From positions 806,001-870,000 of the forward strand of contig JAPETS010000001.1 of NCBI GenBank assembly GCA_026023565.1: DNA of 64,000 bases, read 5' to 3'. The notes under the pieces are model-generated. The model had not been told where the DNA came from. It was given only the letters and a program-made list of their open reading frames with translations, and made no database searches. This document shows positions 387-48,193 of the stretch, piece after piece (the first letter of the stretch is position 1; each line of letters starts with the position of its first letter). Both the position numbers and the translations under genes were made by a program. This DNA is from Cirrosporium novae-zelandiae (taxonomy: Eukaryota).

Positions 387-2849
387 TCAACAACTCAAAG
401 GGAGTTCGCTTATTTTAAATAACCTCAAGGAGGTATCCTCACTGGCAACTGCCAATTCACCGCTTTCATGCTGTTCCTGTGCTTTTTGTTCCTCCCCATC
501 TGACATCAATACTTGTCTTTCACAAGGCCTCCAGCATAAACTAGTAATAGTTCTTGAAAAGCTATATTTTGCACCAACCCGATATTGTGCTACTTTCTCA
601 AAGTTTTGGGGCACACTCAGCGCATAGATATCAAGCTCCCCAGATTCAAAGCCAACCGCGAGGTGTAAAGTCTGCCTTATAATACGCTGCATGAATGAGA
701 CCGCTGATACCCCTTCCGTTGTGGGTATACTTGTCTTCATGTTAAAATTGTCTCCCTCAGCTCCCCATATTTTTACAGCCTTTTCCCGACCAGCAGTTAC
801 AAAGATACAACCACACTCTTTTGGCGCCCAGTCACAGTCATGGATCATTCGAGTATGAGCCTTGGGGTTTGAACTCCGAAGACTATATTCAAGTGGTTTC
901 CCTTCGACTCGCTGGAAAACTGCCCATTTTCGATCACGTCCCACGCTCAATAATTGGGCATCATCTTCAGAGAAACAAAGGCTTGCAACTGTAAGTGAAT
1001 GAACTGTCAGTACTGGCTTAATTTCTTGCCAGTTCTCGGTGTTGTATAATCGAATGACAGCGTGGTCGATTGAACTTGCTTTACAGGCTGTGGCTACAAC
1101 TCTAAGATCATGACTTGCAGCAATGGCAGAGATCTCGTAACCATGACCATATAGCTTTTCGCATTCTGGCCATAGAGTATGCCTTGCGAGATCGTCCTCT
1201 AGAGGCGGGTGTTGAAGATCAGGGATAGAAGAAGAAGAAGAAGCGGAGGCGGGATTTATAGCATCTCTAGATTCTTCTGCTGTATCTTCAGTTTTATTTT
1301 CGTTTTGTTCCTCATTTTCCGTGGCCTTATTTGACAATCCAAGCACTGGCATACTTGCTGACTCGGGCATTATGCTCTCATCAATTTGTTTCACGCCGCA
1401 AAGCCGTTCCAGCACTTTTGCTATAGGCTTCGGCTCGTCAAAGACTCGAAGGAGCTTTTCATCTGCACCAGAAATGAACTGCCGACTACCAAGTGAAGCT
1501 ATGCAATTCAAATCGTAACCATGAATTTGTGGTCTCGAGAATTCATGCCAGGTAGTTTGGCCATTCCCTATCCATCGAGAATGAAGCCTGGTTGTCTGAT
1601 CAGAGCTGGTAGAAAGGAGATATTCGCCTTTGCTCGACCAAGTGATACCCGTTACTGCTCGTACATGGCCGCTGATACCATTGCGCTGTATCCATCGACC
1701 GGATCCTGTATCGTGGTCCCATAGCCTCCAACTGCCAGTTCGGCTCAGGGATGTTACAGTCTGACCGTTCGGTGACCAGAGGCCGATCCAGAACCCGCCT
1801 GTGCTTCCTGTGGCCGTCGTCGAACCTTTCTGGGCATTTATTTCGCCAAGCCGGGTATCACAGACCCAAATACCAGTATTAGATTTACTCCAGATCGCCA
1901 AAGAGTTATCAGCAGAAGTTGTAAGTAGTCGGAGCTGACCATCTTTAAACCGAGTCCATGCCGAGGTATGTATCCAATCCTCGTGCCCTATCAACAATGC
2001 CTCGAACGTAGCAGCATAGTTGACCTCGGCTACCTGGAACGACTGTAATTTGGCTTCCAATGGCTTAAGGGCCGTTTCTCCAGCCACAGGAGTATAAACT
2101 TTGACCGAGTGTGTAGTATTCCTAGACACTCTCCATAGGCGAATATATTTGTCCTGACTAGCCGAGGCCATGATAAGATCATCATGGGAGTTATCCTCCT
2201 GAGTAATTGCAAGCGAGTTGATCCAGCCTTCATGGCCTTCTAGTGTAGAACTCAGAGAAAATTCAGACTGGTTTTCTCCTATGTTTGAGGTATACAGTTG
2301 TATCCTTTTGTTCGTACCTGCTGCAGCTAGAACAGTAGGTACGGAATCAGGCTGTATGGATTTCTGTAGACTGTTTAGTGCAAGGGCCAGCGGTATAAAA
2401 CGTGGAGTTATGTTTATTTTTTGCACAAGATCGGCCTTAATTTCTGGAGATTGATGAAACTTCCATATAGATATTGTAGCATCAGCAGCACCGACAGCGA
2501 ATATGCTTGCTTGTGGTTCAACTGCAATGATATTTATAGATTTCCGGTGTTCAAGAACAGCCTTGCATGAAAAGTCCAAGGAAGAGATAGAGGAGGCCTG
2601 CCATATTCGTACGCATCGGTCTGCGGAGCCAGTAATGATGATAGGAAAATGAGGGAAAAACCTGACTGCCGTAACCTGATCGCTATGTCCTGAGAATAGA
2701 CGCCGTACACCTTGAGCTGTCAGTGGGTTCCAGAGAGCAACATTCTTATCAGCGCCGAAGGCAAGGAGACCTGAGTCCGCATCCCAATCAGCGGCTGCTG
2801 GGTTTCTGTTGCCGCCAATGCTGATATACTCCGATGCAACTGACACCAT
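387..2849 (-). CDS. ELP2: Elongator complex subunit 2 (WD40 double propeller), intronless
   Basis: 820-aa WD40 ORF with Elp2 motifs LEGHEGWI, ASASQDKYIRLW, EALLIGHEDW, WHEFSRPQIHGYD, TLWPECEKLYGHGYE. Confidence 0.96.
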   Translation of the reverse strand: MVSVASEYISIGGNRNPAAADWDADSGLLAFGADKNVALWNPLTAQGVRRLFSGHSDQVTAVRFFPHFPIIITGSADRCVRIWQASSISSLDFSCKAVLEHRKSINIIAVEPQASIFAVGAADATISIWKFHQSPEIKADLVQKINITPRFIPLALALNSLQKSIQPDSVPTVLAAAGTNKRIQLYTSNIGENQSEFSLSSTLEGHEGWINSLAITQEDNSHDDLIMASASQDKYIRLWRVSRNTTHSVKVYTPVAGETALKPLEAKLQSFQVAEVNYAATFEALLIGHEDWIHTSAWTRFKDGQLRLLTTSADNSLAIWSKSNTGIWVCDTRLGEINAQKGSTTATGSTGGFWIGLWSPNGQTVTSLSRTGSWRLWDHDTGSGRWIQRNGISGHVRAVTGITWSSKGEYLLSTSSDQTTRLHSRWIGNGQTTWHEFSRPQIHGYDLNCIASLGSRQFISGADEKLLRVFDEPKPIAKVLERLCGVKQIDESIMPESASMPVLGLSNKATENEEQNENKTEDTAEESRDAINPASASSSSSIPDLQHPPLEDDLARHTLWPECEKLYGHGYEISAIAASHDLRVVATACKASSIDHAVIRLYNTENWQEIKPVLTVHSLTVASLCFSEDDAQLLSVGRDRKWAVFQRVEGKPLEYSLRSSNPKAHTRMIHDCDWAPKECGCIFVTAGREKAVKIWGAEGDNFNMKTSIPTTEGVSAVSFMQRIIRQTLHLAVGFESGELDIYALSVPQNFEKVAQYRVGAKYSFSRTITSLCWRPCERQVLMSDGEEQKAQEQHESGELAVASEDTSLRLFKISELPLSC

Positions 2850-36557: not shown

Positions 36558-36639
36558 TGCTCCCGACGGGACTCGAACCCGTGCCTCGAGCAGACCAGAT
36601 AAATGGGAAGCTCGAATTCTACCCCTGAACTACGGAAGC
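36558..36639 (-). tRNA. tRNA-Gly(CCC) with 11-nt canonical intron (36593-36603)
   Basis: GCTTCCG TA GTTC AGGGGTA GAAT T CGAGC TT CCC A [TTTATCTGGTC] T GCTCG AGGC ACGGG TTCGAGT CCCGT CGGGAGC A; all stems pair; T6 terminator (A6 at 36530-36535). Confidence 0.93.
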
Positions 36640-39659: not shown

Positions 39660-39821
39660 GGGGGATTGGCGCAATGGTAGCGCGTGGTAAGGGCATTGAA
39701 AAAAATACAAAATCCCGATTCACCGTTTCTAACAAATAACAGGCTCTCCTACTTTCGCTAGTTAATAGCAGAAAATATATTGGATAAGCCAAGGCTGTGG
39801 GTTCGAGTCCCATGTTCCTCG
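39660..39821 (+). tRNA. tRNA-Arg(CCU) interrupted by a 56-nt spliceosomal-type intron (39687-39742) in the anticodon stem and a 34-nt canonical intron (39752-39785)
   Basis: Mature 72 nt: GGGGGAT TG GCGC AATGGTA GCGC G TG|GCT CT CCT A|A AGCCA AGGCT GTGGG TTCGAGT CCCAT GTTCCTC G; anticodon stem TGGCT/AGCCA forms only after GT-AG removal; acceptor stem has three G.U pairs. Confidence 0.85.
39687..39742 (+). other. Spliceosomal-type (U2) intron inside tRNA-Arg(CCU), between bases 28 and 29
   Basis: Donor GTAAGG, branch point TTCTAAC (39727-39733), acceptor AACAG; size matches the window's mRNA introns. Confidence 0.82.
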
Positions 39822-39832
39822 GTTCATAATAA

Positions 39833-39838
39833 TTTTTT
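39833..39838 (+). terminator. Pol III terminator (T6) of tRNA-Arg
   Basis: TTTTTT starting 12 nt after the discriminator base. Confidence 0.7.
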
Positions 39839-45402: not shown

Positions 45403-46041
45403 CCTTCACACGTTGGTAGGGGTGCAAAGAGCGAATAGATAACCATAATATATGACATGTTAGCGGCATTCTGGAGAGGCGTTGGGGTTGACTTGGAAGG
45501 GCAAGGGATGACAAAGGAAAATGGTACTAGACAGCCGAATGTCCAAAAGAGCAGAGAGGCGTCAGTGAATTGTATGTATGCTATGATATCAGCTTCTATA
45601 GGATACAGGCAGACGGATTTAACAATCAAAAAATGGACAAGCCTTGCAACGCAACAACTCCAAGCTCTGGGTCTCTCCACGCCCTGGGAGTCCTTGTCAA
45701 CCGACCCTGAATTCATTCCCAGCTCGCCATTGATCCGTCCATCGTTCCACCGAAAGCAATACAAAGCAGAGTACAATTCATCAAAGCCTAATACACAGAT
45801 AATGAATGTCGATTAGTCAAAGTTCATGGCTCATCATGCTTGAGTTTCATAAGTAAGTATCTCTCCTGCTTTCTATTCCACGGCATCATATAGTAATGGT
45901 GTGGTTTTGTTGAAATTGTTATGGTCGTCGTGATTTATTCAGATCAGACCCTTTGAGGGAGGCACATTTGTTTTAGAAGACGTTCGATCAAGATCAGGAC
46001 AGGAAATTAGCGCACACTAGAATAGGTGCGATGTCATTAAC

Positions 46042-47425
46042 TCACTTAGCAGCTGGGGGGTTCTGGGCAAATTGAACGCCCTTCTCAATATTTCCCTTTA
46101 GGCCTGGGTAGCAGGCGCTAAGCAGTTTCTTTTCGTAATCATTGGCATTTTTAACCATGTTGATTGCTTGCTCGACACCGTTGGGCTGGGAAATATTAAT
46201 ATGGGAACATAGGCATTAGTCGAAGGAATTAACATACACCGAGGACTACAGGGACCGAGAAGTACTCGCAGCCAGTGGTCTGTGCGATTGGCTTGCCTCC
46301 TGGAACGCCAGGAAGGTAGACAAACGAAGGTTCAACGATATTGGCTTCGCCTTGTGCAGCACTGATCAGCTTGGTAGCAAAGCTAAAATAGTTAGCATGT
46401 GAAAAATCGAATTTTGAGTTCAAGAGAAAGATACCGATAACCAGCCCAAGCCATTGAAAGAGTAGCTGATCCAGCTCCCTCCTTGGCCTTGACGACCTCG
46501 TCACCACCGAACTGTACACCTGTAAATGATATTATTAGCAACAAGTTTAAGAATTTTATGAGCGTAATTATTCTTACGGTTGACAAGGGCATCTAGCTTA
46601 TCGGCTGGAATATCGACTGGGGGCTTGGCTTGGCTGAATAGAGGCACGATTGTCTCCCCAGAGTGTCCACCAATTACTGGGACAATTGTTGCTGTTGGGT
46701 CACTTCTTCCAGCAATGTCGGCAACAAAGGTTTCAGCTCGGACGACATCTAAAGTTGTCACGCCAAAAACTTTCCGGGGATCATAAACACCAGCTTCTTT
46801 GAGAACCTCGGCAGCAACAGGTACAGTCGAGTTGACAGGATTGGATATTACAAGAACAAATGCCTTAGGACAGTGTTGGGCAACGCCGGTGATGAGAGTT
46901 CTAACAATTCCCGCATTGACTTTGAAGAGATCATCACGAGTCATTCCAGGTTTGCCTATGAGGGATATTAGCTACCCTTGCCGAGGTGCCGAGTAGAAGC
47001 AGCGGAGTATTCACGTGGAATGCCAGCAGGGATAACAACAATATCAGCACCAGTCAAGGCTTGCTTGAGGCCATCGTCTTTAGGAAGGAAGCCAACGATT
47101 TTCTAAATTGAGTCAGCCTATCCTGCTGATGAGAAATTTAGGAGGAAGCCCATTACCGCTGGAGATGAAATGTGAGAAAGATCAGCTGCAACGCCTGGGG
47201 TATTGACAACATCATATAGAGCAAGTTCATTGATTTGAGAGCAAGTCTTTAGAAGAAGGGACAATGGCTAAGGATAAGAATAATGTTAATAGGAGTTCTT
47301 GATTAAGAGGGAGTTTGGCTCAGAGATTTACCTGGCCAATGCCTCCAGCAGCACCGAGTACAGCTATCACGCCATTAGTGTCATTCAATGCTGGATAGAC
47401 ATGTTTAAAGCTTACCAGCTTTCAT
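46042..47425 (-). CDS. MDH: NAD-malate dehydrogenase without mitochondrial presequence (cytosolic/peroxisomal type), many short exons
   Basis: [81 protein letters not shown]. Confidence 0.94.
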
Positions 47426-48024: not shown

Positions 48025-48180
48025 GCTCCTATAGCTCAGTTGGTAGAGCGCAGCACTAGTACTACCAAAGTACTTCACCGGAGTAGCAATGCTGAGGTCT
48101 TCAGGTAAGAGTTTCTCGCCTCTTCATAGGTTTATTCAACCTTCTAACATTTGCAATTAGTTCAAATCTGAATGGGAGCA
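48025..48180 (+). tRNA. tRNA-Thr(AGU) with a 27-nt canonical intron (48062-48088) and a 56-nt spliceosomal-type intron (48105-48160) between G53 and T54
   Basis: Mature 73 nt: GCTCCTA TA GCTC AGTTGGTA GAGC G CAGCA CT AGT A|A TGCTG AGGTC TTCAG|TTCAAAT CTGAA TGGGAGC A; T-stem TTCAG/CTGAA with a 7-nt loop forms exactly after GT-AG removal. Confidence 0.9.
48105..48160 (+). other. Spliceosomal-type (U2) intron inside tRNA-Thr(AGU)
   Basis: CAG|GTAAGA donor, TTCTAAC branch point (48142-48148), TTAG acceptor. Confidence 0.87.
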
Positions 48181-48188
48181 TTCAATTA

Positions 48189-48193
48189 TTTTT
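48189..48193 (+). terminator. Pol III terminator (T5) of tRNA-Thr
   Basis: TTTTT starting 9 nt after the discriminator base. Confidence 0.65.

Follow-up and report, generated by a model that had tools for sequence, protein, structure and literature searches.

Can a transfer RNA (tRNA) gene harbor an intron of the kind that interrupts protein-coding genes, and would such an intron be removed by the spliceosome? The question is raised by a tRNA-Thr(AGU) gene in a stretch of 64,000 nucleotides (nt) on contig JAPETS010000001.1 of the fungus Cirrosporium novae-zelandiae (in the following termed the window), where the T arm is divided between positions G53 and T54 by a 56-nt insertion. The introns of eukaryotic tRNA genes are, in the account of a 2023 review (PMC10275265), located at position 37/38 and excised by an endonuclease made of protein, unlike introns processed by the spliceosome. 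Our analysis has identified a corresponding insertion in another of the tRNA genes in the window, which encodes tRNA-Arg(CCU), and additional ones in tRNA-Thr genes of metagenome loci. We assign a probability of roughly 60% to a reading where the insertions in both window genes are true U2-type introns that would be excised by the spliceosome from nuclear precursor tRNAs of a fungus of the Pezizomycotina and, as judged from its sequence features, the same class of intron is present in tRNA-Thr genes of Dothideomycetes.

Anatomy of two interrupted tRNA genes

The tRNA-Thr(AGU) gene occupies 48025..48180 of the forward strand, starting with the 5' strand of the acceptor stem, which is followed by a standard D arm and an anticodon stem and loop containing C32, T33, the anticodon AGT (48058-48060) and A37 (48061). 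Directly adjacent, a 27-nt intron of the canonical type removed by the TSEN endonuclease separates positions 37 and 38 (48062..48088, forward strand), with the G third from its end (-3) facing C32. Positions 38-53 are found at 48089-48104, ending in TTCAG, and positions T54-A73 at 48161-48180, with the 56-nt insertion located in between (48105..48160, forward strand). This insertion begins with GTAAGA following an exonic CAG, contains the branch site TTCTAAC at 48142-48148, whose branch A leaves 13 nt to the 3' end, terminates with TTAG and is devoid of a run of four Ts (T4). A T5 run resembling a terminator of RNA polymerase III (Pol III) starts 9 nt after A73 (48189..48193, forward strand). 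Concerning the split T arm with its full set of signals, the ordinary intron after base 37, the G(-3) opposite C32 and the T5 terminator, our reading agrees in coordinates and bases with a preliminary description of the locus.

The boundary of the insertion is ambiguous by 2 nt, as both exon 1 and the insertion end in AG, with a single register conforming to GT-AG. Since the AG at the end of the insertion restores positions 52-53 ahead of TTCAAATC, the B-box-like sequence detected in a motif scan stays whole. With the 56 nt left in place, the program ARAGORN does not report a gene, whereas in-silico removal yields a 73-nt cloverleaf with the T stem TTCAG/CTGAA and the loop TTCAAAT, thus reproducing the product that the preliminary description had predicted for exact removal from GT to AG, and for which it had suggested such a comparison with a tRNA finder. 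The family RF00005 of Rfam, whose gathering score is 29, assigns 35.6 bits to 48025-48180 with both introns present. In the unspliced sequence, the last five bases of the insertion (ATTAG) pair at four of five positions with the 3' strand of the T stem (48156-48173), by which the RNA could form a substitute T arm, and it is this imperfect stem that is used in the Rfam alignment.

A loose definition of the splice signals applies to 1.45e-4 and a strict one to 2.5e-5 of random 56-mers from the window, and it appears very unlikely that the signals of the tRNA-Thr insertion have arisen by chance. As reference for the mRNA introns of the host we have used the gene of malate dehydrogenase on the opposite strand (46040..47425, reverse strand), whose eight-exon model provides an uninterrupted open reading frame of 330 residues. 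Its seven introns, with lengths of 52-64 nt, start with GTAAGC, GTAAAT, GTAATG, GTGAAT, GTAAGA, GTATCT and GTATGT and contain CTAAC- or CTAAT-like branch sites and YAG ends, with a T5 run present in one of the seven. In its length and recognizable signals, the tRNA-Thr insertion is indistinguishable from these mRNA introns. The two genes are divergent, with the tRNA-Thr gene located about 600 nt upstream of malate dehydrogenase and not inside a recognizable host gene. The identity of the host is reflected in an open reading frame of 672 residues in the window encoding a nuclear cap-binding protein, which is 96% identical to a protein of Cirrosporium novae-zelandiae, a member of the Xylobotryomycetes in the Pezizomycotina, with the next matches at about 60-65%.

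The second case emerged from a deletion screen, in which each candidate of 35-150 nt with a GT or GC start, a branch site and an AG end was deleted in turn and the remaining sequence rescanned with ARAGORN (12,295 candidates in 326 kb comprising the window and the metagenome loci described below). The screen recovered the tRNA-Thr gene and exposed a gene for tRNA-Arg(CCU) (39660..39821, forward strand), where a 56-nt insertion splits the anticodon stem at 28/29 (39687..39742, forward strand). It starts with GTAAGG after an exonic GTG and ends with AACAG, 10 nt after the branch A of a TTCTAAC motif (39727-39733). Its removal gives a 72-nt cloverleaf, in which ARAGORN locates a canonical 34-nt intron at 37/38 (39752..39785, forward strand), and a terminator-like T6 run starts 12 nt downstream of the gene (39833..39838, forward strand). 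In the intact sequence, ARAGORN wrongly calls a tRNA-Ser with a 90-nt intron, and the gene remains without an Rfam match even at E-values up to 1. Both interrupted genes contain A-box and B-box motifs and downstream T runs, and thus display the type-2 layout of Pol III genes. The third tRNA gene found in the window, an ordinary tRNA-Gly(CCC) with only a small intron at 37/38 (36558..36639, reverse strand; 55.3 bits in Rfam and called by ARAGORN), serves as comparator. An insertion of the spliceosomal type is consequently found in two of three tRNA genes in 64 kb, with no further tRNA gene of the window detected by Rfam at E-values up to 1, by scans for A- and B-box motifs or by a screen of double deletions.

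We found no support for the two window insertions being copies of one mobile family, as their overall similarity is not significant (z = -0.43). What they have in common is limited to a short motif close to the branch site (ATTCANC..TTCTAACA), in a pattern that was derived from these same two introns. The element TTCTAACA is found nine times in the window compared to 2.8 expected from shuffled sequences, an excess that probably reflects the preferred branch-site context of introns in this host. Among the candidates that we have discarded are motif matches to A and B boxes at about 17.47 kb, 3.17 kb, 59.95 kb and 6.89 kb, which are not tRNAs, and false positives of the single-deletion screen where the junction falls at the ends of intact genes (loci L011, L024, L094 and L104) or between adjacent tRNAs (L050 and L085).

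Recurrence in tRNA-Thr genes of metagenome loci

A metagenome scan for the exact exons of the tRNA-Thr gene separated by a gap of 40-70 nt at 53/54 gave no match. A second scan relied on the 5' half of the gene (positions 8-37, with the bases of the anticodon stem left free) and is thus blind to introns within this region, while placing no selection on the rest of the gene. It provided at least 118 loci. Of the 118 listed, 106 were parsed fully, corresponding to 57 distinct gene sequences, and the remaining 12 comprise contig ends, acceptor mismatches and the loci L083, L086 and L023. Among the matches listed, ten of the 118 loci are interrupted, which amounts to eight distinct genes with nine introns at five positions. 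These introns of 51-62 nt carry GT-AG or GC-AG ends and a branch point and are located at 53/54 (L008, L017, L029, L034 and the identical genes L030, L057 and L063), at 61/62 (L042), at 46/47 (L046) and, in a gene with two insertions (L023), at 6/7 and 63/64. In all seven distinct parsed genes from the listed matches where the 3' part is too long for reasons other than an intron at 37/38, the excess is accounted for by an insertion with GT, a branch site and AG; the over-long parses of L038 and L078, which turned out to be mis-registered 37/38 introns, were set aside. In-silico removal restores complete cloverleaves in the genes of the window and the metagenome, with the invariant bases found in place upon reading.

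The doubly interrupted gene of L023 resides on the minus strand at about 1940-2110 in tRNA orientation. Removal of both its insertions, starting with GTAAGC at 6/7 and GCAAGT at 63/64, generates a 73-nt cloverleaf of tRNA-Thr(AGT), with the second intron being of the GC-AG type. Its first exon comprises only 6 nt and precedes the A box by about 56 nt, a placement that is hard to reconcile with the usual start of Pol III. Two of the interrupted genes could be assigned to a fungal class by their neighbors: the contig of L046 belongs to a Capnodiales-like Dothideomycete, as its AP-2 alpha is 92-93% identical to the proteins of Rachicladosporium, Cryoendolithus and Cladosporium, and that of L034 to another Dothideomycete, whose RPC82 shares about 50% identity with the closest named relatives. 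None of the listed matches of the second scan shares the flanks of the window gene and would thus qualify as its orthologue.

The homologues also bear on the identity of the window gene, which ARAGORN, after removal of the 56 nt, reads as a tRNA-Ala(AGC) with a small intron at 32/33. We reject this reading in view of the 3:70 pair, which is T-A and not G-U. Together with the presence of a small intron directly after CTAGTA in 31 of the 106 parsed homologues among the matches listed, the pair supports the assignment as tRNA-Thr(AGU) with an intron at 37/38; the 5' half of the gene is common to 98 genes called Thr(AGT) by ARAGORN among these matches.

In total, two introns from the window and nine from the metagenome provide a set of 11 introns at six positions, all of which keep the three splice signals. 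The 5' site is GT in ten cases, with GTAAGA and GTAAGG of the window introns conforming to GTRNGN, and GC in one (the 63/64 intron of L023), and the last base of the preceding exon is a G in nine of the 11. The 3' end is YAG in ten introns and AAG in L034. The last CTRAY-like motif leaves 10-17 nt to the 3' end in ten introns and 3 nt in L029, where inspection by eye reveals a TATTAAT further upstream. Each of the six distinct introns at 53/54 terminates with AG and thereby re-forms positions 52-53 in front of a T loop starting with TTC, which preserves the B-box-like sequence as described for the window gene. TTTT, which would carry the risk of terminating Pol III, is found in none of the 11 introns compared to 2.8 expected from composition-preserving shuffles, although the significance of this depletion is marginal (P = 0.029). 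A run of T4 or longer follows within 45 nt downstream of ten of the 11 genes, with the contig of L034 ending 6 nt after the gene, and these runs resemble the one behind the ordinary tRNA-Gly gene of the window.

The canonical placement at 37/38 does not apply to the two 56-nt insertions of the window, whereas it applies to the other introns of these genes, with 27 and 34 nt. A search for the bulge-helix-bulge (BHB) motif of tRNA endonuclease substrates in nine registers did not detect its 4-bp central helix in any of the 11 introns (with three pairs as best case), although the test is weak for eukaryotes since two canonical control introns also reached only three of four pairs. No group I, group II or other intron family of Rfam was found in the window at E-values up to 1, and the insertions of 51-62 nt are far too short for a catalytic core of hundreds of nucleotides. 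No target duplication exceeding 2 nt was seen at the insertions in the window or at those of the L030 type.

Other observations in the second scan concern tRNA-Thr genes in general. A family with the acceptor strand TCCCGTT (including L011, L035, L038, L045 and L105) encodes Thr(AGT) with T1-A72 as first pair and often contains 37/38 introns of 13-42 nt, and none of its parsed genes among the matches listed carries an insertion of the spliceosomal type. In L083 and L086, no 3' half is recognizable in the more than 300 nt that separate the 5' half of a Thr(AGT) gene from the end of the available sequence, which could reflect a very long intron at 37/38 or disruption of the gene. In L086, the insert starts with a sequence resembling the 42-nt intron of L038. 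Finally, L047 combines the 5' acceptor strand of one tRNA-Thr family with the 3' strand of another, which do not pair, and looks like a chimeric or recombinant pseudogene.

Signs of maintenance in the interrupted genes and alternative readings

Whether the interrupted genes are maintained can be approached by comparison of related loci. The loci L030, L057 and L063, which are 99.98-100% identical over 4,030 nt, contain a 55-nt intron at 53/54. Since both of their flanks are shared by L028 and L064 at 70-81% identity, the loci are orthologous. The 53/54 intron is absent from L028, which is devoid of introns, and from L064, which contains only a 7-nt intron at 37/38, and the insertion in the L030 group is exact, with all 73 exon bases identical across the five loci. 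The same orthologous site is thus occupied in one species and empty in two. About 90 nt from the intron-less gene, L028 contains an inverted second tRNA-Thr-like copy (2000-2071, plus strand; 38.5 bits in Rfam) with a match in the corresponding region of L064, which is not seen in the alignment with L030.

A second comparison concerns introns that are themselves related. Those of L029 and L030 share 39 of 64 aligned columns (a homology of only moderate significance, P = 0.012), with 73 of 73 exon bases identical, and those of L008 and L034 share 41 of 63 columns, a score that was not reached in 2,000 shuffles, with 68 of 73 exon bases identical. Homologous introns have consequently diverged by about 35-39% while the exons have remained nearly or fully unchanged, and among the exon differences between L008 and L034 is a compensatory change of the 52:62 pair, whose halves are located on either side of the intron. 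Taken together, these comparisons speak for maintained and not for decaying genes, and the impression of a maintained gene conveyed in the preliminary description is in this respect supported by conserved exons next to diverged introns, by the empty orthologous site and by the retained signals.

Several observations weigh against our interpretation. Intron-less genes with identical exons exist in L028 and L064, and the interrupted copies might for this reason be redundant. The spliced T loop of L008 reads TCCGAAT, with a C in place of the universal T at position 55, and this copy may be decaying. In L023, a Pol III start positioned by the A box would fall inside the 6/7 intron, with exon 1 being lost. 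The identity of the exons could be a consequence of gene conversion by intact paralogues instead of selection on these copies. Moreover, the cap that promotes recruitment of the spliceosome is missing from transcripts of Pol III, and both the depletion of T runs and the homology of the introns in L029 and L030 are statistically modest.

In a rival scenario, the introns would be of genuine spliceosomal type and the genes casualties of their gain, constituting silent or useless copies that are tolerated since tRNA families are multi-copy. Such a scenario is favored by the intron-less orthologues, the abnormal loop of L008, the conflict of the 6/7 intron of L023 with the usual placement of the start site and the affiliation of L046 with the Capnodiales-like Dothideomycetes, for which van der Burgt and colleagues in 2012 reportedly described recent gain of introns by introner-like elements. 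However, tRNA genes are a tiny target, and yet two of three were struck in the window and ten of 118 among the listed tRNA-Thr loci, including one gene that was hit twice. The exons have remained perfect in the presence of diverged introns, and this includes a 3' exon of 20 nt, which offers a short target for gene conversion. All 11 introns moreover retain their three signals, T4 runs are absent from them, and the stem change that compensates across the intron (L008 compared to L034) also speaks against useless copies. We consider this scenario of silent or useless copies as unlikely, although it is the foremost alternative to our own.

In our preferred interpretation, which assumes functional genes, transcription would proceed from the internal A and B boxes, which are left intact by the insertions, to the downstream T run, most likely by Pol III. 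As the interrupted arm cannot form, the precursor would not yet be a substrate of RNase P and RNase Z. The spliceosome would recognize the 5' site, the branch site and the 3' site and join the exons exactly, and only thereafter would the ends be trimmed and tRNA splicing endonuclease and ligase take out the intron at 37/38. The introns probably originate from an exact insertion, which could have occurred by intron transposition or through reverse splicing, with an abundant RNA as target that then underwent reverse transcription and recombination. While the anatomy, the recurrence, the occupied and empty states of an orthologous site and the contrast of conserved exons with diverged introns are visible in the sequences, the role of the spliceosome in excision, the choice of polymerase, the succession of steps and this origin are inferred. 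The proposal of a spliceosome-processed precursor tRNA in the preliminary description has thus found partial support, namely in those features that are accessible to sequence analysis, which are the resemblance to mRNA introns in signals and length, the missing BHB motif and the recurrence in a second gene and at other loci.

The same genes could be functional and spliced as part of a longer transcript, made either by RNA polymerase II (Pol II) or from an upstream start directed by a TATA element, from which the tRNA would be freed by RNase P and RNase Z, with the standard mode of internal promotion being abandoned. With its 6-nt first exon, L023 would need to be transcribed from a site far upstream of the A box. 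Splicing as a rule proceeds in coupling with Pol II, and TATA-like motifs are visible by eye 30-45 nt upstream of several interrupted genes. In contrast, the intact or regenerated sequences of the A and B boxes, the T runs shortly after the genes, as in case of the ordinary tRNA-Gly gene, the introns without T4 runs and the location of the tRNA-Thr gene outside of a recognizable host gene all argue for conventional transcription and render this possibility rather improbable. Least of all do we expect a mechanism that bypasses the spliceosome, be it cleavage by the tRNA endonuclease at a BHB motif, as known from ectopic introns in tRNAs of Cyanidioschyzon and nucleomorphs, self-splicing or the retention of the insertion as oversized variable region, since the substitute T stem in the Rfam alignment of the unspliced tRNA-Thr gene is, by eye, not kept in L017 or L030, the BHB helix was not found in a test that is admittedly weak, the size is far below that of group I and II introns, and the full set of spliceosomal signals would be left unexplained.

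Relation to known introns and consequences for annotation

In noncoding genes, introns of the mRNA type have precedents. A 2018 review on U6 lists them in the genes of the small nuclear RNAs (snRNAs) U6, U2, U5 and U1, with U6 of Schizosaccharomyces pombe and other fungi and U1, U2 and U5 of Rhodotorula as examples, and in genes of ribosomal RNA (rRNA), while referring to the determinants of insertion as unclear; tRNA genes are not included in its list of affected noncoding RNAs (PMC5855946). The introns described here resemble those of U6, as portrayed in that review, by the presence of GT-AG ends and a branch site in the gene of a small structured noncoding RNA, which Pol III transcribes in case of U6, and by the fact that they are exact, lineage-specific and not conserved in sequence, with reverse splicing being discussed as origin. 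They differ in their hosts, since snRNAs are parts of the spliceosome, which is the usual explanation for their being struck, whereas tRNAs are not, and since the tRNA genes also keep an intron of the tRNA type. Another precedent is provided by introns of the spliceosomal type that lichen-forming ascomycetes harbor in their rRNA genes (Bhattacharya et al., 2000, as cited in PMC5855946). These equally interrupt a gene of Pezizomycotina whose product is an abundant non-mRNA and whose transcription does not rely on Pol II. In this case, the host is a very large RNA made by RNA polymerase I, and the rules governing intron positions differ.

With respect to tRNA genes, full-text literature searches have not retrieved a description of spliceosomal introns, with most subscription journals outside of their coverage and a prior description therefore possible; this result agrees with the preliminary description, whose author was not aware of any such report. 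A lead, which does not constitute evidence, comes from an experiment of Koehrer, Vogel and Domdey (EMBO J, 1990), who are said to have observed that yeast employs the mRNA pathway to splice a pre-mRNA intron out of the Pol III transcript of an engineered tRNA gene, which would render the proposed mechanism feasible. Unlike the genes investigated here, that construct was artificial.

Introns outside of 37/38 are familiar from Archaea, Cyanidioschyzon merolae and nucleomorphs, where the tRNA endonuclease cuts at ectopic BHB motifs. As in our case, these introns interrupt tRNA genes at unusual positions, occasionally several times, and escape standard finders; unlike our introns, which carry the full spliceosomal signals and in which no BHB was found, they contain neither GT-AG ends nor a branch site. 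Non-canonical tRNA introns of Cyanidioschyzon merolae are the subject of previous work (PMC3978253). The recent gain of introns of spliceosomal type within the fungal class to which several of the metagenome loci belong calls to mind a further class of elements. The introner-like elements of Dothideomycetes and the introners of algae exist in many near-identical copies and have been described in protein-coding genes. The two window introns are not significantly alike overall and not accompanied by target duplications longer than 2 nt, in a comparison that has covered 64 kb of the genome.

The tRNA genes would thus become a new host of a class of introns already known from other non-mRNA genes. 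If our reading is correct, it would add a third route of tRNA intron removal and widen the known range of substrates of the spliceosome. Tentatively, and somewhat against the odds, we extend this view to a sizeable share of nuclear tRNA genes in some Pezizomycotina, including Xylobotryomycetes such as the Cirrosporium-like fungus and several Dothideomycetes, which may contain spliceosomal introns at many positions and sometimes two per gene. Under this extended view, the spliceosome would act in these fungi as an obligatory enzyme of tRNA maturation on Pol III transcripts, reverse splicing would have introduced the introns into tRNAs, and the supply of tRNA would be coupled to the activity of the spliceosome. 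With its exact insertions, the empty orthologous site and 53/54 as hot spot, the set would provide a natural system to study where new introns enter noncoding RNAs.

A practical consequence concerns the annotation of tRNAs, as standard finders would, if this extended view holds, arrive at systematically low numbers of tRNA genes in such genomes. Their tRNA sets are probably incomplete, since interrupted genes are missed, miscalled or assigned low scores by the programs used in this study. Neither of the two interrupted window genes was called properly by ARAGORN, which found nothing in seven and made wrong calls in three of the ten intron-bearing loci among the listed metagenome matches. In Rfam, interrupted tRNA-Thr genes score with 33-44 bits, compared to 54-64 bits for their intron-less orthologues.

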